DNA of 60,110 nt. It comes from a virus. Taxonomy: Duplodnaviria > Caudoviricetes. The notes under the pieces were generated by a model. It made no database searches, was not told the origin of the DNA, and saw only the letters and a program-made list of their open reading frames with translations. Numbering within the stretch: position 1 is the first letter of the stretch; each line of letters opens with the position of its first letter. The translations under genes and the position numbers were made by a program. This document shows positions 6,783 to 47,181 of the stretch, piece by piece. The stretch covers positions 1 through 60,110 of the IMG/VR virus record IMGVR_UViG_3300014656_000003. One strand, written 5' to 3'.

Positions 6783-9350
6783 TCAACCGGCATCGCCTAT
6801 CACCTCCGGTGCGAGTTGTATTCCTATCAATTTAGAGGTCCTTCGCTTACCTTGTATCCGTTTTTCCACATTAAAATGCTGTTTTAATTGTCGATACAAT
6901 AGCGTCATTGAAATCGCAGAGTGTCCGTGTTTCTTGCACCAGTCCTGATAGTCCTCGTATAAATCCTTTGACGACATCATGTATTTCTCGCCTATGTCAC
7001 AATTCTCCTCAATATATATCAAAAGGGGATTGAGGTTAGCCATAAAGTTCCTGGTGTCCTTCTTGACATCCTCACCGACCTTAAACCCATGATCCTTAAG
7101 TAGATATCCGAGCCCGGCCAACATCCACATAAAAATTCCATCCTTTTCCTCTATTAATTTTGCCATCAGATTCTCATCCGTGTCCGGGGCTCCCTCCTCA
7201 AATCGTCGGTTATGTTGTAGGACAATAGGCCTACGCATGAAACCGTGGGACTTATCGGTTATCATTGGAGGAGTATTCATCGTGAAAATAAACTTACAGT
7301 AAGGGCGAAACTGATAGGGTATGCCGTATTTTCGCTCCGCCTTCACCAGGTCTCCGGACGAGGCTTTCTTGAAAGTGTTTGTCGCTGCTGGCTTTTTCGT
7401 CTCGATCTCGGTCGCTACATTGATCATCTTACCTTCCATCATCGAAATATTGAACTTTTCTGCCAGATCGTCCATATCAAGCGAGCTGGCATTCTCTTCC
7501 CCGATTATATCCACGAGTATATCCACGATCCGGGACTTGCCGTTGGCACCATCGCCCACTAAGAACAAGGCTTTTTGAAAACGGCTGTCCGGTAATAGAC
7601 AATAACCGAAATATTTTTGTAGGATAATAAATTTAGTATTTCCGGGTTCCGGATAGACCTCCTGACCAAAATCCAGCCATCTGTCTGTTTTTTCCAGGTT
7701 TGCCCAGTCATAATTGCATTTAACCTGACAGCGGGATCCATATTTAGGGTCATGCGGGAAAATCTCTCCGGTTTTCAGCTCGATCATCCCGGAAAGACAA
7801 TTAACAAAACCCGGGTCTGTATACCAGTTCCACCATTCTTTATTGACCATGCCCTTCAGGCCATCGATCGCTTCTTTGACATTTCCTATCCGCAGCTTGT
7901 TTTTCATGGCCACCACGGCTGCCTGGAAAATGCTCGACTCGGGAAAATCAGTCCACACCCCGTGCTGATATTTCCACCAGGCCTCAGCGGTGAACGTGAT
8001 CGGGCTTAAATATGCCATTAGATATTTTGCCAAAAGTTCCGGTTGAAATAACGGTTTCTTGACTTCGACACGAAAAAACATCCTCGGATCAACATCAAGG
8101 GGAGGGGGAAACGGGGAGTCGAGGACCTCGAAGGCGGGTTCATAAGGGACAATGATGCTGTCGAGTTCTTTCTCCTCATCTCGGCCTGCTGAGGAGTCCC
8201 CTGCAGCGCGATCCGGGTCATACCCCGTCATGAATTCCTTAAGAGACTTGTCTCCGGAGATCTTCGCTCGGGCATCCTTCCAGGTGTAGTGCCTGCAGGA
8301 ATCATGTTTGCATTTATAGAATAGGAATGGATATGTAGTCTTTTGGTGTATTGCAGCCTCACCGCCCCGGTGATTCTCATCAAAAAGTCAATCATGGAGG
8401 ATATACATATCCCCGGTACGTCCATCATCCGGCTTGAACTTATATTGCTTCCCGTAATGATCTAGGTACCGGTCGACGTGAAAGGTACCCCAGTCACCCT
8501 TCTTTATTTTTTTAGCGCCAGTGGTCTGTTTAGGGGGAGATGAGGGGACGGGAAGAGAGCCTGCCGGCGCCAGGGCGGACAGGTCTTGCAGTTTCTTTGC
8601 CGGCGATCGGGAAACATTACCAAATTTTGCGGGCTGCCCTTTGTGTAAAAAACTTTTTCGGTACGGTCGGTCCTCGGTATGGTCGCCTTTTCTCGCTATG
8701 GTGCCGTACAATTTCGCAATTCTGGCCGGGTTGAAGTTCTCCCGGTCGATTTCAACCTTGTCATTTCCCTTGAATTTCTCAGCGATGGCAACCAGGGCCC
8801 GCTTTATAAGCTGGACGTTCTCCGCGGTATTTTCCATCCCCTCGAGGGGATATTGGAGATGAAAACCGTTCCCGGATACGGCGCGGATCCCTGGGGCCCA
8901 CCCCAGCTCACCTTCGAGCCAGGCGGCCACTTCTCGGGCGAGATCTTCGGCGTTTTTCATCTCCTCGTCTGTGCTACTGATACCGCTCACCTTTTCATAT
9001 TTTCCGGGTGAGATCTCTGCCTTTGGATCGAAATCAACGTACAACCATCTAATGATAGCGATGTTAGCGTCTGTCGTTGTGTTTATGCCGGCCTTCAGCT
9101 TGTTGGGTGATCTTGCGAGGAGGGGAGGGGGGCAGGGGTTGAGGGTGAAATAGACGCCCAGGGCGCCGGCGTCATCCAGGGTTTTGGCCGCCTTGGCGAA
9201 ATCTACTGCATTGTTGAAATACCCTGCAACTACTGGTTTTGCACCATAAGCACTGCCTTCCCAGTGCTTGCTCGTGCCGCGGATCCCCCCGATCGCTCGA
9301 ATCTCAACTATTTCCCCGGGATTAAAGAACAGTTCATATACTCGTTTCAC
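6783..9350 (-). CDS. Primase-polymerase-like / Zn-finger / D5 (P4-family) SF3 helicase fusion, 855 codons with one in-frame TGA at 8388-8390
   Basis: ORFs 8388..9350 (YVDFD, SGNGFHL: AEP-like) and 6783..8231 (GDGANGKS Walker A, KFIFTMN) are in the same frame. The linker is open after the TGA: HD*LFDENH...CKHDSC...WKDAR. Confidence 0.85.
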
Positions 9351-9484: not shown

Positions 9485-10210
9485 TCAGGGCATTTCTCGG
9501 AATTTTTCCAAAAATGTGGGCATAACCGGAACTTCAACGTCGTTGTCAGAGGCTCGAAGGTGGGCCGCGGCCGCCCCCCAGTTGCTTGCTTCTTCCCTCA
9601 TATCATCCGCCCAGTTGCTGACTTCTGTGGGTGTCACCTCCACGCCGGCAAGAGACAAAAGATCAGTGATGATTCCGGGTTCATCGTATTTTTTCAGATC
9701 CAGGAGGCGGTCGATCTCGGCCGCTATAAGGGCGCCGGCTATGACCAGCTCACGAATCCGAGGGGGCGAGTAGTCCTTCGGATCGGCAACGACTATCTTT
9801 TCACCGCCCCCATGTCTCTTCCGCTTGTCCCACCATCCGGCCCATTCATCAGGCCAGGGATCAAAGAAGGATATGGTTCCATCCACCCATTCCCTTATTT
9901 CATACAACCTTTTCGGCGTGGCGTAACACACGGCAGCCAGGGCCAGATCACCTCCGCGATGTTCCCGATCATGCTCTTTGTTGAACCCCTTTTGGTAGAT
10001 CTGCCGGGCACGCTCTATAGTGATCATGGCTGCGCCGTCTTTTTTGCTCGATTTTTCATACTCCTCTAACAGCTCTCTGTATTTATCCATTGACTCCTCC
10101 CTCCTCTCCAATAGGTAGTATACTTCCAGGCCGAGCTTATTCTTCAGTGTATCCTCTTGCATCCGCTGCCCCCAGTCCTCCCACGGTTTATTGGTAACAT
10201 TCCTGTACAT
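9485..10210 (-). CDS. Conserved phage protein (ERARQ...HD...LALAAVCYA...LVIAGALIAAEIDRL type; possibly MazG-like fold); start uncertain
   Basis: Motif recognition. The 5' part of the track ORF (to 10360) overlaps dnaA and is probably not translated. Confidence 0.6.
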   Translation of the reverse strand: MYRNVTNKPWEDWGQRMQEDTLKNKLGLEVYYLLERREESMDKYRELLEEYEKSSKKDGAAMITIERARQIYQKGFNKEHDREHRGGDLALAAVCYATPKRLYEIREWVDGTISFFDPWPDEWAGWWDKRKRHGGGEKIVVADPKDYSPPRIRELVIAGALIAAEIDRLLDLKKYDEPGIITDLLSLAGVEVTPTEVSNWADDMREEASNWGAAAAHLRASDNDVEVPVMPTFLEKFREMP

Positions 10211-11555
10211 ATCCCCTTGTCTGACTCCCTTCCAGTTCCTTGGCCAATAATTCCACCTGCTGCTTGACCTGCCGGCTCGTCTTACACTGTTTTTCGATCG
10301 CTTCCGATCCGTATATAACGGTTGCATGTCCCCGGCCGACGCTTTCCCCGATCGTCTCAATTGTTTCGTCTGTGAACTGCCTACAGAGATACATATAGAC
10401 CTTCCTCGGCCACACGTGCACCTTTAACCGTGACTTGGCCCTTAGCATATTCGGGGCCACTTTGTAGCGTTTACACACCAGGTCCTCCACGTCCTTCATC
10501 CTCACCCGCATCCGGGTATCGGTGGTAGCCTCCAGGATCTCCTTTGCCAGTTCCGGGTTGATGTCCCGGCGGAGGAGTTCGCTCCTGATCTTCAGGTTTT
10601 TCAGAACTCCCTCTATCTGCCGGATATCCCCCCGGAGGGTGCCGGCCAGGAGGCCTACGATCTCCCCTGGCAGCTTTATGTCATACTCAACCCCCTTCTG
10701 CTCGATGATCTTTCGCCTTGTCTCTGCGTCCGGTACGTCGATCCTGGCCACGATACCCGATGAGAGACGAGAGGTCAGGCTCTTTCTCATATACGGGATC
10801 GCTTGAGGCATGAGTGAGCTGGTCAGTACGATTTTCTTGTGCTCGTTAATCAGCATATCCAGGGTGTAGCCGAGGGCTTCCTGTGTCTTGTTTTTCGCGG
10901 TCATAAAATGAATTTCCTCGAGGATCAGCACATCGCACCCGGCGTACTTGATCTTAAACGGTCCCATCTGCCCGGCCTTGATAGCATATACCATGTCGTT
11001 CAGAAATTCCTCGGACGTAACATAATTGACTTTAATAGTCCTGTTGTTCTCCAGGATGGCGTTGCCGATTGCTTGGGATAGATGAGTCTTTCCAAGACCT
11101 GTCGCCGCAAAAATGAATAGCGGATTATTGCAAGATCCCGACTCTTCGACGAGGACACGTGCGGCTGCGTATGCCAGCTCGTTACACCTTCCCGTCGCGA
11201 ACCGTTCGAAAGTATAATCTCCGTTCAGCCTTCGCCCGTTTCTGCCTACATCGATGTTCGAGATAGCGAGTTGTGGGGATTCCTTAAATCTGTCCGGTTG
11301 CGCCGGCTCACGCTTCCGGGTGCCGGCGACGATCGTAATTTTAATACCTTCCGAGACTTCCGCTGCAGCGGATTTGATAATCTGGGAGAAATTCTCCTCA
11401 ATCCAGTGGCAGACGAACTTATTCCGGGCCTCTATCACTATCGTGTTGCCCTTTTGCTCCTTGAACACCAGGGGCGTGATCCATATCTCGAAGGGCTTGG
11501 CCCCGACCTTTTGCTTTACCTTCTTCTTTATTTCTTTCCACAGGGCCTGGTTCAT
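10188..11555 (-). CDS. dnaA: Full-length DnaA-like replication initiator (domains I, III, IV)
   Basis: FEIWITPL (domain I); YTFERFATGRCNELA, NPLFIFAATGLGKTHL, DVLILEEIHF, DIRQIEG (AAA+); PRKVYMYLCRQFT...GRGHATVIYG (domain IV). Confidence 0.92.
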   Translation of the reverse strand: MNQALWKEIKKKVKQKVGAKPFEIWITPLVFKEQKGNTIVIEARNKFVCHWIEENFSQIIKSAAAEVSEGIKITIVAGTRKREPAQPDRFKESPQLAISNIDVGRNGRRLNGDYTFERFATGRCNELAYAAARVLVEESGSCNNPLFIFAATGLGKTHLSQAIGNAILENNRTIKVNYVTSEEFLNDMVYAIKAGQMGPFKIKYAGCDVLILEEIHFMTAKNKTQEALGYTLDMLINEHKKIVLTSSLMPQAIPYMRKSLTSRLSSGIVARIDVPDAETRRKIIEQKGVEYDIKLPGEIVGLLAGTLRGDIRQIEGVLKNLKIRSELLRRDINPELAKEILEATTDTRMRVRMKDVEDLVCKRYKVAPNMLRAKSRLKVHVWPRKVYMYLCRQFTDETIETIGESVGRGHATVIYGSEAIEKQCKTSRQVKQQVELLAKELEGSQTRGYVQECYQ

Positions 11556-15631: not shown

Positions 15632-15817
15632 TTATACCTCGTATATATCGAGCCTCTCCTGGACAGCTAACCATAGCGGTAATTCGAGTTCGTTATCAGG
15701 GGACATAAAGCATTCGCTTCTCGGTAGTTTCACCTTCAACCCATCGAACTCCGCCTCTAACTCGGTTTCGCTGTATACTGTCACCGTGTCACACTGGATA
15801 ATGATTCTCTTTGCCAT
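15632..15817 (-). CDS. Small beta-rich hypothetical protein
   Basis: LPRSE...LELPLWLA; GGAGG RBS. Confidence 0.6.
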   Translation of the reverse strand: MAKRIIIQCDTVTVYSETELEAEFDGLKVKLPRSECFMSPDNELELPLWLAVQERLDIYEV

Positions 15818-15868
15818 TGGTCCCCCTCCTCATCTTCTCACCCTCCTTCCTTCTCACCCTCTTATCTT

Positions 15869-16762
15869 CTAATCTTCTTCCTGCCCCGGTTCACCAACCA
15901 AAAACGGCAGGGTATCACACTGAAACCTTGCCGCCTTTCTATGACCTCCGCCGCCATAGCTGAGTGCAATGACGGAAAGATCGATGTCAGGATGTGTCGT
16001 ATACAGACTAACCTCCCACCGACCATTGCGCCGGCAGAAACCGATCATCGCCGAGTGGCGCTTCGGATCATACACGGACTCGAAGAGCTGGGAGTTCACG
16101 ACCGGCTTGCCCGCGTTGATGGCAACGCACGGTATTCCCTCAAACATTACGTCAAAGGCATTCAGCCTGCAGTAATTGTCGTTTACCTTCCGCTGATATG
16201 CCAGGCAGGTCTGCCCTTCCTTGATAATCATATCCACCAGTTCCTCGTGACCCGTAAAGAGCCTCTCCCACAGATCCATCTCCTGATCAGGTGTCGTCTC
16301 CTGTATCCGCATCCCCCACTGAAATGGAAGCACGGATACAGAGTGCTCCAGGTCCCATACGTCATACCGCCCGAGGAGCTTTATCGCCCTGGGCATGGTT
16401 TCTTCATCCGGAAAAAACCAGCTCCACGCCAGCTCGCAGGCAGCGAGCTTATTGGTGCGATACCCGGCGATCGGGATCCAGTCATGTTCCTTAGCCCAGC
16501 GTTCGGCCTCGCTGATTGCCGACTCGTGGTGATCGATCCAGACCAACCGCCCGCAAAGCTCGTCGAGTTGCATCATAAGGGCAAAGGGCTGCAGACTGAA
16601 ATCCACCATGATCACCTCCGTCTCCCCGTCGATCTTGTTCCAGGGGAAATCGTCCCCGTAATCCATCCCCACCATGGTGCAGTGAGGGTACTTGTACTTG
16701 ACGATCGCGCCGGCGCAATGCCCGTCGAGATCCAACCTATGGTATATGCAAATCATTTTCAT
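15869..16762 (-). CDS. DHH/DHHA1-family phosphoesterase
   Basis: YHRLDLDG, VDFS, WIDHH and YGGGGHRKAA motifs. Confidence 0.92.
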   Translation of the reverse strand: MKMICIYHRLDLDGHCAGAIVKYKYPHCTMVGMDYGDDFPWNKIDGETEVIMVDFSLQPFALMMQLDELCGRLVWIDHHESAISEAERWAKEHDWIPIAGYRTNKLAACELAWSWFFPDEETMPRAIKLLGRYDVWDLEHSVSVLPFQWGMRIQETTPDQEMDLWERLFTGHEELVDMIIKEGQTCLAYQRKVNDNYCRLNAFDVMFEGIPCVAINAGKPVVNSQLFESVYDPKRHSAMIGFCRRNGRWEVSLYTTHPDIDLSVIALSYGGGGHRKAARFQCDTLPFLVGEPGQEED

Positions 16763-17066
16763 TTATCCTCCTCCTTCCTTGCCTTCTGACCTTCTCACCT
16801 TCTTCTTCCCCCTCCGGTCCATTGCTATTTTCTTTTATGAGAGCTTCCATCCTGTCAATAAGATTCATGGCTTTTTCTCCACATTCCATGCGAATATTCA
16901 GGTAAAATGTCATAAATGCCACGAATCCCGGGATCTCCCCATTTCCATCCGGACTTGGGAAGATATGATCCAGCAGCATTATAAAATTGGCGCAAGCATG
17001 GCGTTCGTCATGCACAAAGTCATATAGCCGCTCAAAAAGTTTCTTCTGGTTCTCATCTAATAACAT
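16737..17066 (-). CDS. Hypothetical protein
   Basis: GGAGG RBS; 109 aa. Confidence 0.6.
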   Translation of the reverse strand: MLLDENQKKLFERLYDFVHDERHACANFIMLLDHIFPSPDGNGEIPGFVAFMTFYLNIRMECGEKAMNLIDRMEALIKENSNGPEGEEEGEKVRRQGRRRINENDLHIP

Positions 17067-17322: not shown

Positions 17323-17402
17323 TGAAATCTCACCTGTCCTTTCCCATTCGAAGTTGGATGTTCGATGTTGGCCTCCGGCCCGCCTACGCCCCGGAGGGAC
17401 GT

Positions 17403-17872: not shown

Positions 17873-18101
17873 CCGAAACCATCCATTTCAATATCCGTAA
17901 ACGCACTTCCACCCTGCGGATCTCCGCCAGGACCTCATCATTACTCTTTTTGAGCCATCTCTTCTCATAGGAATCCAGAACGGTGCAGGGTTTACAGATA
18001 TTGTGAGGGGACCCGTTTTTTCTCAAATAGCAGTTATTGAGATCAATCGGTTTTTTGCAGTAAGCACAATGCACTTTATTAGGTTTTTTTAATGTTCTCA
18101 C
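17859..18101 (-). CDS. Zn-finger hypothetical protein
   Basis: CAYC...CKPC. Confidence 0.55.
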   Translation of the reverse strand: MRTLKKPNKVHCAYCKKPIDLNNCYLRKNGSPHNICKPCTVLDSYEKRWLKKSNDEVLAEIRRVEVRLRILKWMVSDVGD

Positions 18102-18203
18102 CTTCTCACCTTCTCACCCTCTCACCCTCTCACCTTCTCACCTTCCCACCTTCTCACCCTCTCACCTTCCCACCTTCCCACCTTCCCACCTTCTCACCTT
18201 CTA
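18095..18203. repeat. 8-mer tandem array (CCTTCTCA/CCCTCTCA/CCTTCCCA)n, about 13 units
   Basis: Directly visible; fills the gap between two genes. Confidence 0.95.
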
Positions 18204-18625
18204 TCTTTCATGTGCCACTTATGAACCTTGGCCAGAACGTTCGACTGCCAGTCCTGCAGTTCTTTCCGGTCCGGGCTCCGGGCTGCGAGGGGACCGCGTA
18301 ATCCATCCATGACCATGTTGAATGCAAACAAGGGGTACTTCTCGGTATGCGGCCAGTTATCGCCGACATATTTTGCCCTCAGATCCGGATCCTTCTCTTC
18401 GTAGATTTCACTCACAAAAATGACCCGGGGCATAACAATGATCGCTTTTTCAACCTTGCACACAACATTTGACTCCACCAGACTCAGATAACTCTCGTCC
18501 TCTTCCACGCCCAAGACCTCGATCCTGGCATTGGGAGACAATATCTCCGCCATGCGATCGAGGTCCTCTTGCGTGGTCGCCGGCTCTTCACCCTCCGGAA
18601 GTCTTAACCTGTAAAGATAATTCAT
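18194..18625 (-). CDS. Hypothetical protein
   Basis: AGGAGG RBS; 143 aa. Confidence 0.7.
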   Translation of the reverse strand: MNYLYRLRLPEGEEPATTQEDLDRMAEILSPNARIEVLGVEEDESYLSLVESNVVCKVEKAIIVMPRVIFVSEIYEEKDPDLRAKYVGDNWPHTEKYPLFAFNMVMDGLRGPLAARSPDRKELQDWQSNVLAKVHKWHMKDRR

Positions 18626-19947: not shown

Positions 19948-20610
19948 ATGAATACACATTTTGGAACCAGGCTAAAAGAAGTCAGAAAAGATGTAAAATT
20001 AACTCAGGAAGATTTTGCCAGGGAAATCGGTGTCAAAGGACCTCATATTTCCCAGCTTGAAAAAGGCAAGAGTAATCCATCCGATCAATTCATTAAATCC
20101 ATATGCCACCGGTTTTCTGTAAATGAACCCTGGCTTGTTAAAGGAGAAGGGGAGAAGTATATCTCTTTGAGAGAAGTGGCGAGAGAACATGTCCTTGGGA
20201 TACCGCCGCAGGCTAAAGACGATGAAGGCCTGTGGGGCAAAACCCGGCATCATGAAGCCAAGGGCGAGCACTTCGCTGTCACCGAATTTGAACCAAGAAA
20301 AGAGGATTTAGATTACGACGATCCGGCCATCAAGACTTTTGCGGAGCTGAAAAAGGTTTTTGAGCTGGATTCCCCCGAAATCCGAGATGCCATACTCGGA
20401 CGGTTCCGGGATGTCGCCTTCATATCCCGTCTATTGATAGACTATCAAGACCTTAAAAAAGATCACCTGTCCCTACGCAATAGGCTGGATAAGGTATTAT
20501 TGGTTCTCAAGAGAGTTGAAGATATCCTTGTAGAAGGGAAATTACCCGAAAACATTGAAGAGAGACGCGAGACCTGGGTCGCAATGAAAAAGGCAATAGG
20601 CATCGATTGA
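19948..20610 (+). CDS. CI-like XRE repressor
   Basis: RLKEVRK...LTQEDFAREIGV...ISQLEKGKSNPS...VNEPWLVKGEG; no S24 peptidase domain evident. Confidence 0.9.
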   Translation: MNTHFGTRLKEVRKDVKLTQEDFAREIGVKGPHISQLEKGKSNPSDQFIKSICHRFSVNEPWLVKGEGEKYISLREVAREHVLGIPPQAKDDEGLWGKTRHHEAKGEHFAVTEFEPRKEDLDYDDPAIKTFAELKKVFELDSPEIRDAILGRFRDVAFISRLLIDYQDLKKDHLSLRNRLDKVLLVLKRVEDILVEGKLPENIEERRETWVAMKKAIGID

Positions 20611-20626: not shown

Positions 20627-21697
20627 ATGCCAGTTTATACCAAAAAAAACCTCCTCTACTGTGTCTACTGCGACGGCCCCAAACGGATTTGGGAACCCTT
20701 TGGCAAAGACACCCCCCAAAATCGCGCGGCCGCCGAAGCCCGGGACTTTGAGATAAAGGCACGGAAAAAGCGGGGAGCATGGCACCCGTCTACCTACAGC
20801 CTCATCACCTTCCGTGATCTTGCCCAGGCGTACATCGATGAGCGGGCTCCCGAACTGGCCAAAAACACCGTTGATTGTATATTCTACACCCTGACCGCTT
20901 ACGTTCCGGACGACCTCCAGAAAACGTCCATCAGCCGGATCACCCTGGCCGACTGGACCCGGATCCAGCAGCAAATGATCAAGGCCGGCGCCCAGGGCAA
21001 AAAACTCAAATTAGGAACCATCAATAAATATTTCCACTACCTGGACAAGATATGGCGGTGGGCAATAGAAGGCAATGACCCGTCGCTCATCGATCGAAAC
21101 CCCTGGGAGAGGAGAAAACGACTGAGCGATCGCCGGGAACGCCAGAAAACCCGCCTCCGTCTCCTCAGCCTGGCCGACCTGAAGCGGATCATTGCCTTTT
21201 CCGCCCCTCACCTCGCCTGGAGCCTGGCCGTGGCGTACTACACCGGCGCAAGGACGGGACCGACCGAACTCTTTGCGCTACAGTGGAAACACGTAGACTG
21301 GGGGCGCGGGGGAATCAGGATCCCCGGCACCAAAACCGTCCGCAGTCGGCGCTGGCAGTTCCCGGACAAACAATTCATGCCATGGCTCCGGATGCGCTAC
21401 GATTACGACCAAGAGAAATACCCCGACTGCCCGTGGATCTGCCACTACCGCGGCGAACCCATAAGCTCCCTCAAGACCGCCTGGCGAACCGCTAAAAAGA
21501 AAGCCGGCATAACGAAGCGGATCCGAATTACGGATATCCGCCATTTTCACATCACCTACGCCCTGGCGGGCGGCGCCGACATCATGGACCTGGCCGAGCG
21601 CGTCGGCCACTCCAACGCCCGGATGATCATCGATGTCTACGCCCACCTGGCCAAAGACATCCAAACAAACCAGCCCCACAACATCCCAAAACTGTAG
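20627..21697 (+). CDS. int: Tyrosine integrase
   Basis: YTGAR, TK, DIRH, GH and YAH catalytic motifs; adjacent to a tRNA-derived attP. Confidence 0.93.
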   Translation: MPVYTKKNLLYCVYCDGPKRIWEPFGKDTPQNRAAAEARDFEIKARKKRGAWHPSTYSLITFRDLAQAYIDERAPELAKNTVDCIFYTLTAYVPDDLQKTSISRITLADWTRIQQQMIKAGAQGKKLKLGTINKYFHYLDKIWRWAIEGNDPSLIDRNPWERRKRLSDRRERQKTRLRLLSLADLKRIIAFSAPHLAWSLAVAYYTGARTGPTELFALQWKHVDWGRGGIRIPGTKTVRSRRWQFPDKQFMPWLRMRYDYDQEKYPDCPWICHYRGEPISSLKTAWRTAKKKAGITKRIRITDIRHFHITYALAGGADIMDLAERVGHSNARMIIDVYAHLAKDIQTNQPHNIPKL

Positions 21698-25625: not shown

Positions 25626-25668
25626 GTTTAGCCTCCCTGTATAGGAAACGGCCTGTCGTCCTTCAATG

Positions 25669-25699
<31 letters not shown>

Positions 25700-25881
25700 A
25701 ATCCCTTTCTCCCATCATGCCGCCTCACCTGCACCCATGACATCCCGAACACTGCCTGCAAACGATTTTCTTCTCACCCAGGATAATCTCCAAAGGAAAT
25801 CTCATGGTCTCATTTTTCTTCAGCATGGGCTTTTCATACCTCACCTTCTCACCTTCTCACCTTCTCATCTTCTAATCCCTT

Positions 25882-28800
25882 TCATGCCGCCTCCTCCATA
25901 CCCCTTGCCGTACTCTTCTTTATCCTGGACCGGACCCGCTTCCGGGCGTTCAGGATGACTTTCCGGATGATCTTGGCCCGCTTCTCCGGAGAGAACTGCT
26001 CCCAGTTATCGGCCTTCATCCGCCTTTCCAGCTTCCGCCGCACAATGCTGCTCGAATCGTTCAGGTATTTCGCGTACTGGCCCCGGGTCATACGTTGAGT
26101 GATCCCGCCAACGGTCATATACCGGCTGGGGGGCCCCATGCTGAGATCCCCGGCCTTCAGCATCTTCTCGATCATGTCAAAGGCCGGGTCCGCCTTTTTA
26201 CCTTCCGCCTCCAGGATGGGTGTCTCGAGTCTCGGGGGCCATGCCGTGTGGGTTTGTGCGCCGGCGGACTGCATGAGGGCGGTGAGTCCGTCCTCTTCAC
26301 CCTGCAGGTACTGGATGAAATGCCCAATCTGTATGGGCTGCATGTTGACTACCTGATTGACAATCGTTGCCGGCGCTCGGGTGATGGCCCCCTCCTTTGG
26401 CAGGTGTGTCGATTTCTTGATCGTTTTCCCGGTCGTTAGCAGCTCTGCGGCCCCGGTAAACGGCCTGTCGGCCCAATCCGATCCGCTTACAAATGCGCCG
26501 GCGACTCGAACAACAGGCGACCCTTTGCCCTTGATCAACCGCCAGGGATCCATAAGCTTCAGCGGGTCAAAGAAGTGCCCGCCGATAGAAAATGTCTTCC
26601 TTCTCCCTTCAGTATCGATGCCCAGCATGTTATACAGCTTCGTCACATCGACTTCCGTCCACCGCTTTTTATTGAATCGATTCGAGAGCATCTGCTCATT
26701 GATGAATTCCTCGGTCTCATCCCACCCGTTCAGGAGCATCTGGGCGAGAACTGTCGATACGGCGATCCGGAACACTACCCGGCCCCAGAACTTCCTGTAT
26801 ATTTTTTCCATCCCCTTTGGACCCGGTACGTCGCCCATAAACCTGCTTATTTTATCGTTCAGTCCGGGAATCCAGCCGCTGACAGTCCGGAAATTCGACT
26901 CGGTATTTCCGGTGATAAATATCAGACCTTTTCTTTCCGCGAGCCAGAAACCCGTGTCTACCGATGGACACCAGATTGTTCCGGAGTAGTCAACTTCGTC
27001 CTTATTATCATGGTGGCCCCAACAGCTTATGCCTTTCCCTCTGGTTATCCAGCGGGTGCGCCAGCAATTCTCTTCTTGTTGATAGAAAGTTGATGGCAAT
27101 CCCTGCATCGTCCTGATAAGCGTCATATAAAACACTATCTTTTCTTTTCCGGAGAAACGATTTTGCCCGGTTCCGCATCCGAGCATCATTGTATCGTCAA
27201 GGAGTTTAATTTGCCTTTTTGTCAACTTACTTAAAAATTCCCAATTCAAACCATCTTCCAGGCCGATATCCTGCATTTTTTGAAACAAACCATTGGGAAT
27301 GTTAAAAACATGTTTCTTATAATTGGCTTTGAATTTATCATGATCGCAATTTGTATCGTCTACATGATAAGTGATCCCTAAATTCTTGAGCATCTCGACC
27401 GTTCGCGGCTTTGATTGTGTTATCCTGCCATATCGATATTCTTTGGTAGATCCATCGGCCAATTTATTATAGGACTTTTTCACATATCCATCGGTTACTA
27501 GCCACCCGCAGAGCTTTACAAAATAATCCGTATAGGTCTCTTTTTCAGGGAAATCAAAATCAGCACACCTGGGAATCTGATGGTTTGTTTGAAGATCTTT
27601 GGCCTTGACTATATCGTTTCTTTTCGTAGTGGAATTATAAACATAGCAGGTATGATCCGGGGTCAACATTACACTTCGGCTGAAATTTTTAATCCGGATC
27701 ATTTTTCCTGCGTAATTTTTGTTGACATACTTGTCTTTCAGCTTGGACCATTTTAGTTTTTGGGTTTCAGGATCAAAGGCCATGATTTCATCATTCGTTT
27801 CCAGCTCATGATGATATTTCCAGCCTGCTTTCGTCATAGCGCGGGTTTGAAAATCGCAGCACCAATCTGGTGCTAGCAGCAATATCCTGAACCATTTCTG
27901 AAGCGAAGGGTTCCGCCCCATTCGTCCCAGGTGGAGGCCTCCGAAGTCCGCGTTAATGAGTCTTGCCACTTTCTCGGCGATCTTTCCCGTATCCGGAGGG
28001 GCTTTTATAACTCCTTTGGTGTATTTCTCGTTTGCCTTCTGTAGCTCGTGGCCATATTCCATTACAAAGGCCTCAGCCTTCAGGCCGGCAAAGAACTTCT
28101 TAAAGAGACTGTCCGTGAACCGCTCCCTATTGAATCGCCCGTACTCGATGACCTTACCCGCTTTTTCCAGCCCAAAGTAATTAACCAGGCGCTCGGCAAA
28201 CCCCTTTTGCTCTCCAAGCGCCCGTTCCGACCAGTCCTGGAGATCGCCCAGGGTGAGACCGTTTTTGACCCCCAGCTCCACCAGCGCGTGCCGTTCCCGA
28301 ATCTTATCAAGTCCGGCCTTGTAGGCACTTACAGGGTTCCACCCCTTCCAGCCATGATGCACCCCGAATATCCAAGAGCGTGATCCTGCCATATGGTGAA
28401 AAAGGGACGACAGCAGCACCCACGCCTTCATGCTTGCGTTTAACCTCAGCAGGCCCTTGAGAACCGGCACTTCCCCAAACATATCGCCCGAGGCTGTCAT
28501 CTTATTGATCATCTCGGCGATGGGTCTGGGCGCATAAAGCGGCGCCTTCTCAAAAAACTCGGATACATCTTCGGGCGGCCGCCTTTCGATACGATCATAG
28601 CCTTGGTCCTTTGCCCATTCATTGGCCTCTTTCTCGCTATCAAAAAGCCTTGCCGCCCGTTGGTCTGCATTGTCTTTGTAAACCGCCCACCGCTCCGGGA
28701 TCCGCTCCGGAGGTGTAGCAAAAAACTTTCTCCCATATGCGGTAATAGCAAGGGCTTCCTGGTCCGGGAGATCCGCTTCAGCCACGGCCTTTCCTGCCCA

Positions 28801-31800
28801 CCGCCATACCTGAAAGCCCGAAGCCTTCAATTGCCCGTACCCTTCATGTTCCGTGGCGCTGAACATCGAGTTGCCGTCGAGCCCCATGGTGGCTACGCCT
28901 CGCTGCACAAAGGCTTTATTGGCCATGATGCCGGCCAGGTCTTCCATGTACTGCCCGTAGGAGTTCGTGATCCCCTGGACCTTCAGCTCATAGCCGTTCA
29001 TCCACCCGTCGAGGATTGTGTCAAGGGTCCGCTGCTTTGCCGCCGTGGTGTAGGTCTTAAACCCGTAACCACTCCCGGAGCTCTTGAAATCTTCCTCTTT
29101 GCCCTCGGGCAGCGTCCAGATCCGGCGGACGTAGTTATCCATGTGGGACTTTATGATTTTAGCCTGTTTGGCCACCGCGTGGGCAGCCTCAAAAAGTCCG
29201 CCCATTTTTTCGGTAAACTTTTTTTGCTCATCTTTCAGGTTCACGGCCTGGTTAAGCAGCTTGAGCTGCCCTTTAATTTTTATCTTATCCCTTGCAGGCG
29301 TCTTCTGGTCCTCGAGTTGCCCCTCGGCCCAGTCCCTGAATTCCTGTTCTTTTTCGGGCTTATTCTGAAGGTCCCGCCACACCATCATGGCCCGGTCTAA
29401 CTGATCCGATGCCATGGACCGCTTCAGCTCTCGGTTATGGGCAAACCCGAGCACAAACTTGCGCCGGCTCGGCTGTCCCGCCATTCCCTGGACCTCCTCC
29501 TGGAGCTTAGCCACCTCGGTCTTCACCCGGTTTAAGGCCAGGTCCTTCATTTCAAAGATTTTGTTCACAAAAGAGCGATTCTCCGCCAGTTCCCGGGAGA
29601 CCTCCTCACCCACCGGCTGCTTTGCCACGTTTAGCCAGGCCTGGGGGGCATATGCCTGCTGAAGGCTTACACCCGTCCCTTCCGCCTGTTTGACGGCAAG
29701 CCGGATATCCCCCGTCTCCGGCGACCAGGTGCCGGTGTTGAAGATGGATTTGATTTGATTGGGATAGAAGGCGACTATTTCTTGTTTATTATTTGCAAAT
29801 GCACCATCATAACCAGCCAATTCTAAGGTTTCCCTGCTTGTTAATCCTAATGTTGCTCTTTCATAGGCAGGGGTTGATAAAATAGATCCTTTTGCATTCA
29901 GAAAGGCATCTTTATAAGACCCATATCGTTCTTTTGAATTAGGTTCTAATCCTTTGTTTTTCCTTATTTGGTCCGTTGCTACCCATAATTTGTCAAAATC
30001 TTTTCCTGTTACATTATCAAAATCAAATGGATTCTCAATAGACGCATACAAGGCCATTACTCGCCCTGATTTTGTTAGTTTTCCTGTCTTAATAGACGTT
30101 GTGTAAAGTTTTGCATAAACTGGATCTTTTGTAAGAAAATATCCAGACGAGTAAAAACCTCTATCTCTAATACCATATTTTTTGAACACATTAAATTTAG
30201 CTGGCGTACCATGGTAAACCACCAACGGATCGCCCTTTTCGTCCACAACCTTGCTCTCATCAAACCACGCCTTGAAATTCCCCTGGCGCTTCAGGTCGGT
30301 GAGCGCCTGAAGGCTTACACCCGTCCCTTCCGCCTGGCCGAAGTGAGGCCTATACGCGTCGACAGCGATCTTCCCGAATATATCCTCGGGCCTGGTGAAT
30401 CCCATGCCGTTCAGACCGTTCCGGATGATCTTAAGGAGCCGACGGAGCTTGAGCAGTATCGCCCGGATAGGCCCCGGGTGTCCGCCGATCGGCGAGACCT
30501 TTCGGCCGGCCACAAAGGAGGAGAAGGCATCGGCCGCTTTTTCCTCTGTTTTGAAGTATTTTATGAGCTTGGCGTAGTCCGCCTCCGGGAGGATCCAGCG
30601 GGCGGCGACGTGAAAGGCCTCGTGATATGTAGTGCGTTCCAGCTCCCCGAGGCTCTGAACGCTCAGGGCCAGTTCCAGGAGGCCCCGGTAGTTCCTGAAG
30701 GTCGTGGCGCCCAGGATGGTGTCGAGACTTATTCCCTGCTCGGCCCACTGCTCGGTGGTTTTGGATACGTCTTTCCCCGATATGTCGATGATGGCCTTGA
30801 GTTCAACGTCGATCCGGGCGATGACTTCGGCCGGGAGTCCGGCCGCCTTGAGCCATTCCCTGACCTTGCGGGCGATCTTGACGATATTTTTAATCTGTTT
30901 GGGGGATAATTGGGAGGGCTGTTCTCCCTGGACGGCTAACGGGTAGGCTGAGAGGGCGGTTTCTCCTGGAACAGCGGGGTGAGCTTGTACTCCCTCAGCA
31001 AGTCGCCCATGGCGACTATCTTCTCTCGGGGTTCCCCTCTCAGGTTGCCGCCGGTGCTGATCCGACCGAACATCTCCTTGAGCTCCTCGGTCGAGTAGCC
31101 CTTGTAGGTCTCGGGTAATTTTTTGTCTGGCATTTTCGGTCCCTGCATTGTTTATTGTCCTTATAATATCCCTTGCCTCTGTCCTTGTCAAGAGGCCCGC
31201 TAAATCTTTTGCCCTGATATCTTTTATGCCTGCATTTTTCAAGGCCTTTCCGAGGGCCGTCTGAGTCGCCCGGTCTACCTTTAACCGCGCATCTCCCATG
31301 TAGCCCACGACTGTCTTTACATCTATGCCGGCGCCGTTAAGTGTCCTGATAAATGCCGCCACAGACCCACCGGATGTAAAAATATCATCAACGACAACAA
31401 CTTCTTTTCCTTCCGTGATTCCCTTGAGCTCTTCAAGGTTACGGGGTTCGTAATCACGCGGATAAAACGCCCTTTTATATTTCGGGATATCCTTTGACGC
31501 CTCCTCATGGGCAGCGGTATAATAATCATCTCCCCTCACATATTCACCGCCCAGATCCTTTGCCAACTTCTCCGCAAGGCTCAAAGGATGAACATTCATA
31601 CGGGTAGTGCTCGGCTGCGCGATAAAGACTGTGTTTCCCGGAGAATCGAGCTGCTCTTTCAGTTTTTCGGTTTTTTTATCCGCCCAGAACTTGTCCGCAA
31701 AACGATCCGCCGCCGCCCGGTCGCCCTTCTCTTTCCCTGCAATCCAGTCTTCGTCCTCTTTTATAAGGGTGCGATCAACCTTCACCCTTTCAACGATCCC

Positions 31801-34800
31801 TTTCTCATTTAATTCAACAGCATCTCCCCTTGATACCGCCAGCTTGGTCTCCTCACCGACTACGACTTCGCCCGGCTCACCACCCTCCGTAGGGTCCCGC
31901 CTGGGCGGGATGCCCGCCGCCTGGGGCCTCACCGCCGGCATAGTCTCGCCGGCTCTCCCCTCGGCTTCGGGGGCGGGCGGTTCGGTGGGCTTTCTTTCCT
32001 CAATAAGTTCCTTTGTTCCCTTTAATGTTTTTGGTAATTTCTGGCCTGTAAATTCCTCAAATACCGTTCTTGATATCTTATTTGAGGGATCTAACAGGTC
32101 CGTCCATATACCATTGTTTATTGCATCAAGTAGCCCTTTTGCGTTTTTCATTGCGACGGCAAATGGCATATGTTTATCGGCGACATTTGCAATCTCAACA
32201 TATCTTTCTGCTATCCGGTTAGGGCTTATATCCTCCCCCCCCTTTGCAGGGGTGGCTTGCTCAGGGACCTTGGCAGGGGCCTTCTCCGGCTCCGTGACCG
32301 CCTTGCCCTTGAATAAATCAGGGTACTCGGCTTTGACTGCATCGGGGATTACGGAAGCGTCTTTCGCGGCCTGGGCTTTGACAGACGCCCGGTGCTGCCT
32401 ATGTTGTGTTGAAACAGTCTTTTTCACTATTTTTCCACGAGTGCCGGCCGGATCGTCAAAAAAGTGAAACAAGTCATCAGTAACCGGATCAGGATCACCA
32501 TATTTTTCAGCGAATGAACGCCATTGCTTGAGTGTTATCAAGCCTTCTCTTCTACCAATCTTCTCGTTTTTCTTGACGATAGATTGCAATGCCTTCCATT
32601 GTTTTTCACGGGCTTTAACCTCGGGATCTTCTAAATCCCTAAACATAGTTTCATATTCACTGGCCATCATTTCCCATGACTCTTTGGCTTTGGTGGCCTT
32701 CTCCTTCCCCGCCTCCAGCCTCTCGCCTCTAGCCTCTCCCCCCGTCCTCTTCCCCGTAATCGTCTCAACACCTTTTTTTTTGGGCTTCTCGGTGGCCTTT
32801 TTAACCTCTGGGGTGGGTCCTGTTCGATAAAAGTCATTAAATCTTTGTGTGGCCCTCTCAGCAGCATCCTTGGCTTTTTTATATATCTCATTGGATACTT
32901 TCAACCCCTTCTTTTTCCTATATTCTAAAGCCGAAAGTTCACTTGTTCTTTTCTTGAAGTCACGCCTTATATATTGTTCTTTTTCGTATTCCGTTTTCTG
33001 TTCTTTTTGTTTTTCAACTTCTACTTCATGCTCTTCTAAAAACTCTTTACCTTTTGCGAAATCAACCCATCTAAGGGAATCCGGCTTTTTTGTGTCTGAT
33101 TTTTGGTAAAGCCATCCTTTAACGATGTTTTGAAGTTCTTTAACGTCAACATTTGTAGGGTGGTCTAAAATAGTTCCGTCTTTGTGTACCTGTCTTACCG
33201 TCCAACCATCTCTACCGCTTTTCATAACGATCGGAACTATATCAATCTTGTCTATCCCCTTTTCCTCCATCATTTTAGACAGTGCGAATTTTTCAATATC
33301 ATTAAGACTATCAAGCAGAGTTTCAGCTTTGGACATTGCCTTCTCCTTCCCCGCCTCCAGCCTCTCGCCTCTAGCCTCTCCCCCCGTCCTCTTCCCCGTA
33401 ATCGTCGCGACGCCTCGGGGTTTTCCCTTCCTGAGCTCAAGAACCTGCTCTTTGCCGTCCTTCCCGCTGAACACCACGGAATTAAACGTGATTTCCTTTC
33501 CCTCGAAGGTGCTGTCTCCTATATATTTTTTGCCCTCTCCCTTCTTGACATAGGCGATGGTGAGGTGGGGACGGTAAACCGGATGGGTGTCCGTAACCTC
33601 AATTTTTTCGCTGATCAATTTATTGAGGGCATGGAGTTCAGGACCATCAATGTCCACCTTGACGACATCGGCCTCGTCATTTTCAAAGACAGATACCTTG
33701 CCGAGCGTAGCTTTGATCGGGCCCTGACCTTCAAGTATAGGCTTCAGATCCTCCGGGTCAACGGTATGAAGGCCGTATTTTACCGTAATATGGGGACTTT
33801 CCACTCTCCCCGAATCCGGGTCTTCCGGATCTATATAAAGCTCTTCATCCGGGATCTTTTTCCCGAAATCTAATACCGGCTTCGCCTCCGTTTCCGGTAG
33901 ATTCACCTGGGTCGAGCTATATTTATGGGCCTGGGGCTTTATCTGATCCTCTGTTTTCTCAGCTTCTCCACCTTCTATCCCTTCGGTGGGAACCCCCTGC
34001 TCCTTTCCCAGGGGAGCAGGGGGTTTAGTGGTGGGCGCCTCCGTCTCCTTGCCTAAGGGAGTGGAAGGCGTTTCGGTAGGTGTCGGGGTTGTTTCTATCC
34101 TTTCTTCTTCGCCGCCTTCGCGGCCTCGACCTGCCTCAATCTCTCGTTCGCTTCCTTCTCGGTCTTGTAGGGTCCTCCCAGGCGCCGCCGTTTCCCCGTG
34201 ATCGGGCTCTTCTTCTCCGCGTACACGTGCCACCCGTCCTTCTTTTGCCGCATCATCCGCTGCCTCCTCCCTGGCCGCCATAGCTTCAGCGGTGGTGAAT
34301 TCTTCTCTTACCCTCTGATCTTCTGTTTTCTCACCTTCTTCCGCCCTAAGCGCCTCCAGGTCCGCCCTGGCCGCCTCATCCTCCCGGCTGATCTCATCGA
34401 GCATCGTTTCGGCCCTGCCGCGGGCCGCCGCGGCCCGGCGCTTTTCGTCTTTTTCGAGCTCCTCGCGGTCCCGGGCTCCGGCCGTAGCGATATCCCCGGT
34501 TCCGTGCGTGGAGGAGGCCATCGGCTGCCGGCTCTCTTTGTCCTTCCTGCCCTCTCTTACCCTCTGATCTTCTTCCCCTCTTATCTTCTGATCTTCCGTC
34601 CCTTCGCCCTGCGCGAATACCCCGCCTACGCCTCCACCTAACACCGTTCCGATGATCCCCGATTCGACGATCCGACCAACGTTCTCCCTGAAGCCCTGCT
34701 CCGGCTTATGCCCCAGGCTTTCTACATAGATGCTGACCGCCTCCTGGGCCATCTCGGTGCCGCCCTCTGTAAGGGCCTGGCGCACGATTTTTTTGATAAT

Positions 34801-35445
34801 CCGGTGAGCTCCGGTGCTTTTAAGAAATAAGGTGTCAAAAGGCAGGATTTCCAGGATTCCGTTTGCTATACCGATCGTGATTCCTTCCAAGGTGGCCGTC
34901 TGCTCGGTCGTAACCGGATCCCAGCCCTCCCGGATCATCTCATCCTTGGCCTCGCTGTATGCCGCGCCCGCCTCCACGGTCGCAGCTCCGCCAAAGGCGC
35001 CCGCCAGTGAGACCGTCCTTATGGCTTTTTCGCCCCATCCGGCGAGCCTGGCCGCTCTCATGGCGCCCAGGCCCGGGAGCATCATGGCGGCCATGGTGGG
35101 AGTGTTCTCGCCCAGGGACCTTACCCACCATCTCCAGTCCAGCAATCGTTCCGGATGTTCGACAACGGTCCCTTCGGCCAGGTACGCCGGCCGCCGCAAA
35201 GACGGACTCTCTCCCAGATCCCGGTAATACTCCCGGGTAGTTGCCCCGCCGGGGATCCCGGCCATCTCCATGGTACCGCCGATGGACTCCATGGTGGATG
35301 CGGCACCGGCCCCCAGGGCGGAGCCCACTTCCTCCAGCGGGCCCCTGGGGTCTTCGGGTTCTTTTGCTCCAGGAAGGATGGTGGCGCCTGGAGGCCCGCC
35401 TTCCGAAAGCCAGCGATCGAAATCTTCCTGGGTTTTTAATCGCAT
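25882..35445 (-). CDS. Giant polyvalent (probably ejected) virion protein: 2H phosphoesterase, PRTase, zincin, ADP-ribosyltransferase, intein
   Basis: PHITVKYGL/PHLTIAYVK; VVVDDIFTSGGS; HEAFH; FKAWFDESKVVDEKGDPLVVYHGT...GYDG...EIVAFYPNQIKS; last of the ejection-gene cluster. Confidence 0.85.
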   Translation of the reverse strand: MRLKTQEDFDRWLSEGGPPGATILPGAKEPEDPRGPLEEVGSALGAGAASTMESIGGTMEMAGIPGGATTREYYRDLGESPSLRRPAYLAEGTVVEHPERLLDWRWWVRSLGENTPTMAAMMLPGLGAMRAARLAGWGEKAIRTVSLAGAFGGAATVEAGAAYSEAKDEMIREGWDPVTTEQTATLEGITIGIANGILEILPFDTLFLKSTGAHRIIKKIVRQALTEGGTEMAQEAVSIYVESLGHKPEQGFRENVGRIVESGIIGTVLGGGVGGVFAQGEGTEDQKIRGEEDQRVREGRKDKESRQPMASSTHGTGDIATAGARDREELEKDEKRRAAAARGRAETMLDEISREDEAARADLEALRAEEGEKTEDQRVREEFTTAEAMAAREEAADDAAKEGRVARVRGEEEPDHGETAAPGRTLQDREGSEREIEAGRGREGGEEERIETTPTPTETPSTPLGKETEAPTTKPPAPLGKEQGVPTEGIEGGEAEKTEDQIKPQAHKYSSTQVNLPETEAKPVLDFGKKIPDEELYIDPEDPDSGRVESPHITVKYGLHTVDPEDLKPILEGQGPIKATLGKVSVFENDEADVVKVDIDGPELHALNKLISEKIEVTDTHPVYRPHLTIAYVKKGEGKKYIGDSTFEGKEITFNSVVFSGKDGKEQVLELRKGKPRGVATITGKRTGGEARGERLEAGKEKAMSKAETLLDSLNDIEKFALSKMMEEKGIDKIDIVPIVMKSGRDGWTVRQVHKDGTILDHPTNVDVKELQNIVKGWLYQKSDTKKPDSLRWVDFAKGKEFLEEHEVEVEKQKEQKTEYEKEQYIRRDFKKRTSELSALEYRKKKGLKVSNEIYKKAKDAAERATQRFNDFYRTGPTPEVKKATEKPKKKGVETITGKRTGGEARGERLEAGKEKATKAKESWEMMASEYETMFRDLEDPEVKAREKQWKALQSIVKKNEKIGRREGLITLKQWRSFAEKYGDPDPVTDDLFHFFDDPAGTRGKIVKKTVSTQHRQHRASVKAQAAKDASVIPDAVKAEYPDLFKGKAVTEPEKAPAKVPEQATPAKGGEDISPNRIAERYVEIANVADKHMPFAVAMKNAKGLLDAINNGIWTDLLDPSNKISRTVFEEFTGQKLPKTLKGTKELIEERKPTEPPAPEAEGRAGETMPAVRPQAAGIPPRRDPTEGGEPGEVVVGEETKLAVSRGDAVELNEKGIVERVKVDRTLIKEDEDWIAGKEKGDRAAADRFADKFWADKKTEKLKEQLDSPGNTVFIAQPSTTRMNVHPLSLAEKLAKDLGGEYVRGDDYYTAAHEEASKDIPKYKRAFYPRDYEPRNLEELKGITEGKEVVVVDDIFTSGGSVAAFIRTLNGAGIDVKTVVGYMGDARLKVDRATQTALGKALKNAGIKDIRAKDLAGLLTRTEARDIIRTINNAGTENARQKITRDLQGLLDRGAQGDVRSDQHRRQPERGTPREDSRHGRLAEGVQAHPAVPGETALSAYPLAVQGEQPSQLSPKQIKNIVKIARKVREWLKAAGLPAEVIARIDVELKAIIDISGKDVSKTTEQWAEQGISLDTILGATTFRNYRGLLELALSVQSLGELERTTYHEAFHVAARWILPEADYAKLIKYFKTEEKAADAFSSFVAGRKVSPIGGHPGPIRAILLKLRRLLKIIRNGLNGMGFTRPEDIFGKIAVDAYRPHFGQAEGTGVSLQALTDLKRQGNFKAWFDESKVVDEKGDPLVVYHGTPAKFNVFKKYGIRDRGFYSSGYFLTKDPVYAKLYTTSIKTGKLTKSGRVMALYASIENPFDFDNVTGKDFDKLWVATDQIRKNKGLEPNSKERYGSYKDAFLNAKGSILSTPAYERATLGLTSRETLELAGYDGAFANNKQEIVAFYPNQIKSIFNTGTWSPETGDIRLAVKQAEGTGVSLQQAYAPQAWLNVAKQPVGEEVSRELAENRSFVNKIFEMKDLALNRVKTEVAKLQEEVQGMAGQPSRRKFVLGFAHNRELKRSMASDQLDRAMMVWRDLQNKPEKEQEFRDWAEGQLEDQKTPARDKIKIKGQLKLLNQAVNLKDEQKKFTEKMGGLFEAAHAVAKQAKIIKSHMDNYVRRIWTLPEGKEEDFKSSGSGYGFKTYTTAAKQRTLDTILDGWMNGYELKVQGITNSYGQYMEDLAGIMANKAFVQRGVATMGLDGNSMFSATEHEGYGQLKASGFQVWRWAGKAVAEADLPDQEALAITAYGRKFFATPPERIPERWAVYKDNADQRAARLFDSEKEANEWAKDQGYDRIERRPPEDVSEFFEKAPLYAPRPIAEMINKMTASGDMFGEVPVLKGLLRLNASMKAWVLLSSLFHHMAGSRSWIFGVHHGWKGWNPVSAYKAGLDKIRERHALVELGVKNGLTLGDLQDWSERALGEQKGFAERLVNYFGLEKAGKVIEYGRFNRERFTDSLFKKFFAGLKAEAFVMEYGHELQKANEKYTKGVIKAPPDTGKIAEKVARLINADFGGLHLGRMGRNPSLQKWFRILLLAPDWCCDFQTRAMTKAGWKYHHELETNDEIMAFDPETQKLKWSKLKDKYVNKNYAGKMIRIKNFSRSVMLTPDHTCYVYNSTTKRNDIVKAKDLQTNHQIPRCADFDFPEKETYTDYFVKLCGWLVTDGYVKKSYNKLADGSTKEYRYGRITQSKPRTVEMLKNLGITYHVDDTNCDHDKFKANYKKHVFNIPNGLFQKMQDIGLEDGLNWEFLSKLTKRQIKLLDDTMMLGCGTGQNRFSGKEKIVFYMTLIRTMQGLPSTFYQQEENCWRTRWITRGKGISCWGHHDNKDEVDYSGTIWCPSVDTGFWLAERKGLIFITGNTESNFRTVSGWIPGLNDKISRFMGDVPGPKGMEKIYRKFWGRVVFRIAVSTVLAQMLLNGWDETEEFINEQMLSNRFNKKRWTEVDVTKLYNMLGIDTEGRRKTFSIGGHFFDPLKLMDPWRLIKGKGSPVVRVAGAFVSGSDWADRPFTGAAELLTTGKTIKKSTHLPKEGAITRAPATIVNQVVNMQPIQIGHFIQYLQGEEDGLTALMQSAGAQTHTAWPPRLETPILEAEGKKADPAFDMIEKMLKAGDLSMGPPSRYMTVGGITQRMTRGQYAKYLNDSSSIVRRKLERRMKADNWEQFSPEKRAKIIRKVILNARKRVRSRIKKSTARGMEEAA
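26905..27861 (-). mobile_element. Intein (319 aa) with probably degenerate LAGLIDADG domain
   Basis: APDW|CCDFQTRAMTKAGW...LTPDH...GWLVTDG...YSGTIWCPSVDTGFWLAERKGLIFITGN|T; AT-rich island. Confidence 0.9.
29659..30336. repeat. 30-bp direct repeats (29659-29688, 30307-30336) flanking the ART domain
   Basis: CTGAAGGCTTACACCCGTCCCTTCCGCCTG, identical; encodes QAEGTGVSLQ. Confidence 0.9.
32696..33406. repeat. 69-bp direct repeats (32696-32764, 33338-33406) flanking an AT-rich module
   Basis: Identical copies encoding TITGKRTGGEARGERLEAGKEKA. Confidence 0.92.
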
Positions 35446-47128: not shown

Positions 47129-47181
47129 ATGACCTATCAGCCCAAAAATCGCGAACGTTCTACGTCTGCTCGTTTTTCGTG

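Follow-up and report, generated by a model that had tools for sequence, protein, structure and literature searches.

The bacteriophage genome of IMG/VR record IMGVR_UViG_3300014656_000003 (Duplodnaviria; Caudoviricetes) carries on its minus strand a primase-helicase gene whose frame is interrupted once, by a TGA codon that stands where a zinc-finger cysteine is expected and that is followed by a hairpin resembling a bacterial selenocysteine insertion sequence (SECIS). The stretch analysed, hereafter the window, is the complete virus record of 60,110 bp, with direct terminal repeats: bases 1-123 are identical to 59988-60110, giving a 59987-bp unit with a 123-nt terminal repeat. The locus comprises the following features (selenocysteine, Sec; open reading frame, ORF).

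6783..9350, minus strand: whole primase-helicase frame in readthrough translation, 855 codons plus the final TGA, with the internal TGA at codon 321
8388..9350, minus strand: 320-aa ORF under translation table 11, with a GTG start at 9350-9348, read as an AEP-type primase core plus linker
8388..8390, minus strand: candidate Sec codon TGA, residue 321, in the place of the first ligand of a C-H-C-C zinc finger
8359..8373, minus strand: SECIS-like hairpin UCACCG-GGG-CGGUGA, 5' arm 8373-8368, loop GGG 8367-8365, 3' arm 8364-8359
8232..8387, minus strand: rest of the zinc finger plus linker, with H327 at 8372-8370, C347 at 8312-8310, H349 at 8306-8304 and C352 at 8297-8295
6783..8231, minus strand: 482-aa ORF under table 11, an SF3 helicase with D5_N, DUF5906 and Pox_D5, beginning at Met374

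The primase and helicase ORFs lie in one frame and are parted only by the TGA at 8390-8388, as the first-pass annotation of this DNA had reported, and the frame runs without a stop from that codon to the terminal TGA at 6785-6783. No in-frame start codon occurs between the internal TGA and the ATG at 8231, and the segment 8232..8387 is left untranslated if the TGA terminates. Fused full-length homologues (832-892 aa, 37-44% identical) align end to end, across the TGA. The helicase half is matched by the Pfam models D5_N, Pox_D5 and DUF5906 (3.2e-20) and also by PHROG “DNA primase” families, including PHROG 864, and profile positions 424-836 of A2, an alignment of six sequences that was used as the locus query, match PDB 7ola in this C-terminal half with E = 6.5e-35. 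For the N-terminal part, a protein search of its 320 residues returned 6911 relatives; these residues have no Pfam match, and the AEP and finger module has no sequence match among solved structures. D106-x-D108 and S159-G-N-G-x-H164 are invariant among the closest relatives aligned, and we read them from their sequence, with no matching Pfam or PDB AEP model, as AEP primase motifs. A 66-aa ORF in another minus-strand frame (8228-8428) overlaps the finger region, its own TGA overlapping the ATG at 8231 (ATGA), and is probably due to chance.

The first-pass annotation had also placed the TGA at the first Cys of a zinc motif, and the alignments bear this out: Cys at this column is invariant in 12/12 aligned homologues. 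A scan of relatives covered 161 loci, namely 50 viral, 80 metagenomic (the best 80 of 282) and 31 genomic contigs; some of these are one contig present in two collections, and 125 distinct relatives are used elsewhere in this work. Two loci (L096, L101) begin past the Cys column and were left out, and at all of the 159/159 loci that reach it the codon is TGC (90) or TGT (69), with TGA at none. Because the peptide patterns all lay downstream of the TGA, the scan was unable to favour Cys at this column. The remaining residues of the region, H327, C347, H349 and C352, are invariant in the homologues and intact in the window. Among the 346 single-base changes that create a stop in this frame, 11 fall on any Cys, 3 on an invariant zinc Cys and 1 on codon 321.

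With the TGA counted as its first C, the finger motif is C-x5-H-x19-C-x4-C. The UL52-like finger of human PrimPol, formed by C419/H426/C446/C451, is described in the available text of its report as C-x6-H-x19-C-x4-C, and the C419A/H426A mutant as having lost primase activity (PMC4027207). It is by motif spacing that the phage finger appears akin to this type. An AlphaFold2 model of residues 283-375 has a mean predicted local distance difference test score (pLDDT) of 92.6; a Foldseek comparison of the finger model with solved structures returned no match at E <=0.001 (best E = 0.19), and no Pfam zinc-finger model matches the primase-helicase.

A genome-wide reassignment of TGA (NCBI tables 4 and 25) was considered and rejected, TGA ending 25/74 ORFs, including the primase-helicase gene itself; under table 11, coding density is 90% and a 3187-aa ORF is open. 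As TGA is an ordinary stop elsewhere in the genome, reading through codon 321 as an amino acid calls for SECIS-dependent decoding and not for a changed code. Across the 60 kb, no other convincing TGA-split gene was found.

The hairpin begins 14 nt 3' of the TGA, with the loop starting at 20 nt, just as the first-pass annotation had stated. By itself it folds with -6.5 kcal/mol, and it may be lengthened to 8386-8340 by a lower stem of weaker pairing, the extended structure (66 nt) reaching -11.5 kcal/mol. The published bacterial SECIS (bSECIS) model, in the available text of a 2026 review, asks for a loop of 3-9 nt, a stem of 4-16 bp, a G in loop positions 1-2, a distance of 16-37 nt from the UGA and a minimum free energy <=-7.5 kcal/mol (PMC13188914). 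In our own implementation of this model, the window passes all four constraints (spacing 20, loop 3, stem 6, -11.5 kcal/mol). Rfam gave no relevant match around the TGA site.

A more discriminating comparison was made with real Sec sites of the clade in which relatives of the gene occur. Among the relatives in genome collections, 27/31 are in Desulfobacterota and “deltaproteobacterial” metagenome-assembled genomes (MAGs). From five Desulfobacterota genomes that carry relatives (G001-G005), 39 real Sec-UGA sites were taken, each an in-frame TGA, either of a SelD gene (5) or at the known Sec position of FdhA-like (16), MvhD/FlpD (10) or peroxiredoxin (8) proteins. The first-pass annotation had asked for Sec genes in the predicted host; in these five genomes of the candidate host clade, selB is above the cut-off in 5/5 and SelD with one in-frame TGA is present in 5/5.

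The clade geometry was defined as a loop of 3-5 nt with G at position 1 or 2, a loop start 17-23 nt after the UGA and a contiguous stem of 5-9 bp. It is fitted by 37/39 real sites, and 29/30 three-nt loops begin with G; the window, with a spacing of 20, a GGG loop, a stem of 6 and -6.5 kcal/mol, takes a central place among them. Controls pass far less often. With the number that also reach -6.5 kcal/mol or lower given in brackets, the passes are 4/125 (1) for Cys homologues, 5/98 (1) for in-frame Cys codons, 68/1046 (4) and 40/893 (3) for other TGA triplets of the phage, 640/10000 (77) for synonymous resampling and 541/8170 (91) for TGA triplets in host-clade loci, with 0/19 for other real TGA stops. 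Overall, control pass rates are 0-7% by clade geometry and 0-1.1% with energy equal or better. Under a narrower rule taken from the SelD and FdhA sites only (a 3-nt loop beginning with G, 19-23 nt from the UGA), 19/21 real sites pass together with the window, compared with 1/125 homologues and 631/60040 strand positions.

Among the Cys homologues, only locus L064 has a hairpin as good as this one; it is also the Cys relative closest to the window over the finger (56% identity, alignment A4) and has TGC at the column. Its sequence AAT CAC CGC GGC GGT GAG stands against AAT CAC CGG GGC GGT GAG in the window, so that the 6-bp stem is identical and the loop is CGG versus GGG. The stem is probably a by-product of the codons for N-H-R-G-G-E. 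The lone TGA of the family lies in a lineage that, as very few others do, has a SECIS-shaped hairpin at the distance of a SECIS, as would be expected if a Cys-to-UGA change survives only where Sec can be inserted.

With moderate confidence, we propose that the TGA at 8390-8388 is decoded as selenocysteine, as a candidate known from a single sequence. The Sec reading of the first-pass annotation is thereby upheld in part: the anatomy of the gene, the normal use of TGA as a stop elsewhere, the hairpin geometry and selB in 5/5 genomes speak for it, and the solitary TGA and the presence of the stem in L064 speak against it. In a Sec-using host, SelB with Sec-tRNA(Sec) would bind the hairpin 8373-8359 and deliver Sec as the ribosome reaches the UGA, codon 321 being read as Sec. 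The product would comprise 855 residues, that is, an AEP primase, a U-H-C-C finger and an SF3 helicase. Termination at the UGA would instead release a 320-residue AEP fragment without finger or helicase, which should not prime, by analogy with finger-less PrimPol as described in the accessible part of its report (PMC4027207). Such a gene could have arisen by exaptation, the stem being already present when the TGY-to-TGA change (TGY standing for TGC or TGT) came to be tolerated in the lineage. We infer SelB recognition of the hairpin, the role of Sec as a zinc ligand and any tie to selenium supply; a tuning of replication by that supply is speculation.

Several observations weigh against decoding as Sec. 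As a generic fold the region is unremarkable (z = -0.70), 41/200 shuffles folding as well. The loose bSECIS model is uninformative, as it is passed by 41/125 Cys homologues, 159/600 phage TGA triplets, 26/98 in-frame Cys codons, 317/1000 synonymous resamplings and 69/500 shuffles, that is, by 26-33% of natural and synonymous controls and 14% of shuffles. The two clade-based rules were written after the window hairpin had been seen, and they draw on four protein families and five genomes only. Since L064 has the same stem with a Cys codon, the stem is older than the TGA and was not selected for Sec insertion. The phage genome itself contains no tRNA genes, no tRNA-Sec and no Sec genes that we could find. 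Desulfobacterota are only the likely host clade. No natural protein is known to us in which a zinc finger has Sec among its ligands. In its available text, the 2026 review raises Sec as a possible metal ligand for other families only, and no report of Sec as a zinc-finger ligand was found there (PMC13188914).

The solitary occurrence of the TGA belongs with these points. None of the 159 loci has it, only the window does, and neither the locus scan nor the matches listed by the protein searches gave another relative that carries it. At 44-57% identity, the nearest relatives are too distant for persistence of the TGA within the lineage to be visible; a search by DNA pattern found no near-identical relatives among viral contigs, in a set that may omit records of, or very near, the window genome. 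By the convention of the field, a single-sequence cluster is called a “selenoprotein candidate” in which errors are not excludable, and the term “new selenoprotein” is kept for a UGA in at least two different sequences (PMC1976440); the UGA described here is in one sequence. The first-pass annotation had named a TGA unique to this contig, with the same hairpin in Cys homologues, as grounds for giving up the Sec reading, and in part this is what we found, with TGA in 1 genome versus 159 TGY loci and the stem in L064.

The strongest rival, which we nonetheless regard as unlikely, is that the TGA is a recent null allele, a TGY-to-TGA change acting as a plain stop in a genome that is either defective or manages without its primase-helicase, for example as a host-copied lysogen or with help from its DnaA homologue, the hairpin being an inherited coincidence. 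The lone TGA among 159 loci suits a young mutation, as does an intact downstream frame; TGC and TGT are each one step from TGA, and L064 combines the same stem with TGC. Split relatives are likewise missing from the protein searches among the matches listed: no protein ending just before the Cys column was seen among 120 listed of 131 matches (176-560 aa), nor among the best 150 of 6911 matches, in which eight short proteins were inspected. Broken copies do occur in the family, about 1/109 stop-bounded relatives having a shortened helicase part, and the phage, which encodes an integrase and a cI-like repressor, is a temperate one. Against this stand a complete genome with terminal repeats, assembled more than once, which suits replicating or packaged DNA over a decaying prophage, and the fact that, over all 60 kb, a TGA visibly splits no other gene. 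The null allele further needs two independent coincidences, a hit on an invariant zinc Cys (3/346) and a hit in a lineage with a suitably spaced SECIS-shaped hairpin (1-4/125). Counted with the rarity of broken copies (about 1/109), random nonsense requires three coincidences, the hairpin being found in about 1-3% of the family, and all three observations are expected under Sec decoding.

Beside these searches we note one protein, P0133 (286 aa, 32% identical), whose called sequence ends 1-2 residues before the Cys column; its contig could end there, or another stop could stand at this position.

It is improbable that the UGA is simply a leaky stop, which a near-cognate tRNA for Trp or Cys would decode now and then independently of SelB, giving much 320-aa fragment and little full-length protein in the manner of programmed readthrough. 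Readthrough genes of this kind exist in phages, such as that of the A1 protein of Q-beta, and the downstream frame is intact. The UGA is followed by C, and Poole and colleagues reportedly found in 1995 that UGA-C is the weakest termination context in E. coli; however, C also follows the UGA in 23/39 real Sec sites, and the context does not discriminate. Readthrough by tRNA-Trp would place Trp at a zinc ligand, and the exact Cys position and the SECIS-shaped hairpin would be left unexplained.

A genuine two-gene form, in which a primase of 320 aa and a helicase of 482 aa (from the ATG at 8231) are made apart and the finger segment stays untranslated, is very improbable. An AAGGA does precede the ATG at 8231, the AEP part and the remainder are separate ORFs in 36/125 relatives, and many AEP-only proteins of 230-250 aa exist. 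However, relatives that are split have their break 60-150 residues upstream of the Cys, mostly with a change of frame, so that the helicase ORF always keeps the finger, and the size of the AEP-only proteins agrees with such a break. A split in the window would cost the finger, all of whose other invariant residues are nevertheless intact; the AAG-GAA simply codes for Lys-Glu, and no start codon lies in frame from 8387 to 8234. Met374 with the AAGGA was also considered as a newly evolved start and rejected, Met being common at position 374 in the homologues and hence a family residue.

The split arrangement of the relatives is an observation in its own right. In about 29% of them (36/125 distinct; for example L001, L012-L014, L020, L028, L084, L088, L095 and L099) the AEP core ORF stands apart from a linker-finger-helicase ORF. 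Of 32 loci examined, 24 have the AEP motif, and in 15/24 the AEP ORF is one frame over from the finger-helicase ORF, the open frames overlapping in many. Such relatives may have two genes, or a programmed frameshift may possibly join the two ORFs.

Least probable of all is a base-calling or assembly error hiding a true TGC or TGT, which would suit a single-base difference seen in one genome only but is opposed by an identical 320-aa ORF with the same end in the JGI/IMG (contig 60110) and Logan/ENA (longest contig 60048) assemblies. Both represent one 59987-bp unit and differ in how its ends overlap, and their ORF versions differ only in the writing of the GTG start; an assembler artefact is unlikely, and the two assemblies may share reads.

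Beyond the primase-helicase locus, the genome is that of a temperate phage, carrying an integrase and a cI-like repressor as well as anti-repressor, amidase, capsid and tail genes. Its annotated proteins include no further primase, helicase or polymerase besides the primase-helicase. Among cultured phages, 1467 records match, each at <60% identity and over less than 80% of the query, which leaves no host clue. The other features located are the following.

10188-11555: full-length DnaA homologue with DnaA_N, ATPase domain and C-terminal helix-turn-helix, adjoining the primase-helicase gene
19948-20610: cI-like repressor
20627-21697: integrase
25882-35445: polyvalent protein of 3187 aa with ART-PolyVal, 2'-5' RNA ligase-like and phosphoribosyltransferase domains
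45858-48384: diversity-generating retroelement
18095-18209, 25832-25885, 43785-43880, 44758-44800, 53700-53779, 15811-15880, 16770-16815 and 36961-37006: tandem arrays of an 8-nt unit
53083-53180; 25659-25712, 38653-38706, 44836-44903 and 17337-17390: further short intergenic arrays

In the retroelement, the reverse transcriptase occupies 45858-47003 and an Mtd-like tail protein 47182-48384, and the template/variable repeat pair (47013-47128 versus 47192-47307) is 84% identical. The 8-nt arrays, with the unit TTCTCACC on the plus strand and GGTGAGAA on the minus strand, stand directly 5' of many minus-strand genes. Every unit contains AGGUGA, which is presumably complementary to the 3' tail of 16S rRNA, and the arrays may be leaders built from repeated Shine-Dalgarno-like sites. 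The other short intergenic tandem arrays comprise a TGCGCCA 7-nt unit repeated about 12 times and units of the TTCGATG/TTGGATG type at several intergenic sites.

The candidate resembles bacterial genes with a SECIS inside the ORF, served by SelB and with E. coli fdhF as the prototype (consensus model in PMC13188914), in having a UGA on a Cys column, a hairpin just 3' of it, a G-G-N loop of 3 nt, a 6-bp upper stem and a 20-nt spacing. It differs from bacterial selenoprotein genes in being a phage gene, in encoding a replication and not a redox enzyme, in having its UGA in one sequence and in being known here from sequence alone. Among the Desulfobacterota sites, a SelD element, UCCAGG-GGA-CCUGGA, has the geometry of the window (spacing 20, loop 3, stem 6), and the GGG loop is also present among real sites. 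These sites differ in that their UGAs are conserved across genomes and belong to known selenoprotein families, and that in 27/39 the hairpin equals or exceeds that of the window in stability.

The UL52-like finger of human PrimPol and of herpes simplex virus 1 (HSV-1) UL52 likewise follows an AEP domain, with the same ligand order and similar spacing, and differs in that the first ligand here would be Sec. The C-terminal half is like that of P4-family or D5-type phage and plasmid primase-helicases (7ola, PHROG 864), which leave the N-terminal AEP and finger unmatched. The “DNA primase” of PDB 7ola we take to be a staphylococcal island enzyme. Gene 4 of phage T7 yields gp4A and gp4B, with and without a zinc-binding domain, by way of an internal start, and encodes a primase of the DnaG/TOPRIM type. 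The phage gene described here could similarly yield forms with and without the finger from one gene, by a stop codon instead of an internal start and with a primase other than the DnaG/TOPRIM kind.

A full-text search of the literature open to this analysis found, among the papers listed and judged by title and the start of the abstract, no report of a phage selenoprotein, although supplementary inventories could list one. The words “phage”, “virus” and “primase” are absent from the available text of the 2026 review (PMC13188914).

We tentatively put forward a fuller picture, possible and short of probable, in which selenium-using anaerobes, probably Desulfobacterota, are host to a temperate phage whose only primase-helicase is made as a selenoprotein. 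Sec would be the first finger ligand, and host SelB would be borrowed through a pre-existing hairpin; the full-length enzyme, and with it replication, would be tied to host selenium, while most ribosomes would release the finger-less fragment. In practical terms, gene callers cut such genes in two, as happened in the window. If the TGA is indeed decoded as Sec, this would be a bacteriophage-encoded selenoprotein that acts in replication and not as a redox enzyme, its Sec being a structural zinc ligand. It would point to a route by which new selenoproteins arise, a Cys-to-UGA change surviving thanks to a ready-made hairpin, and it would make a link between the selenium status of the host and the replication of the phage directly testable.

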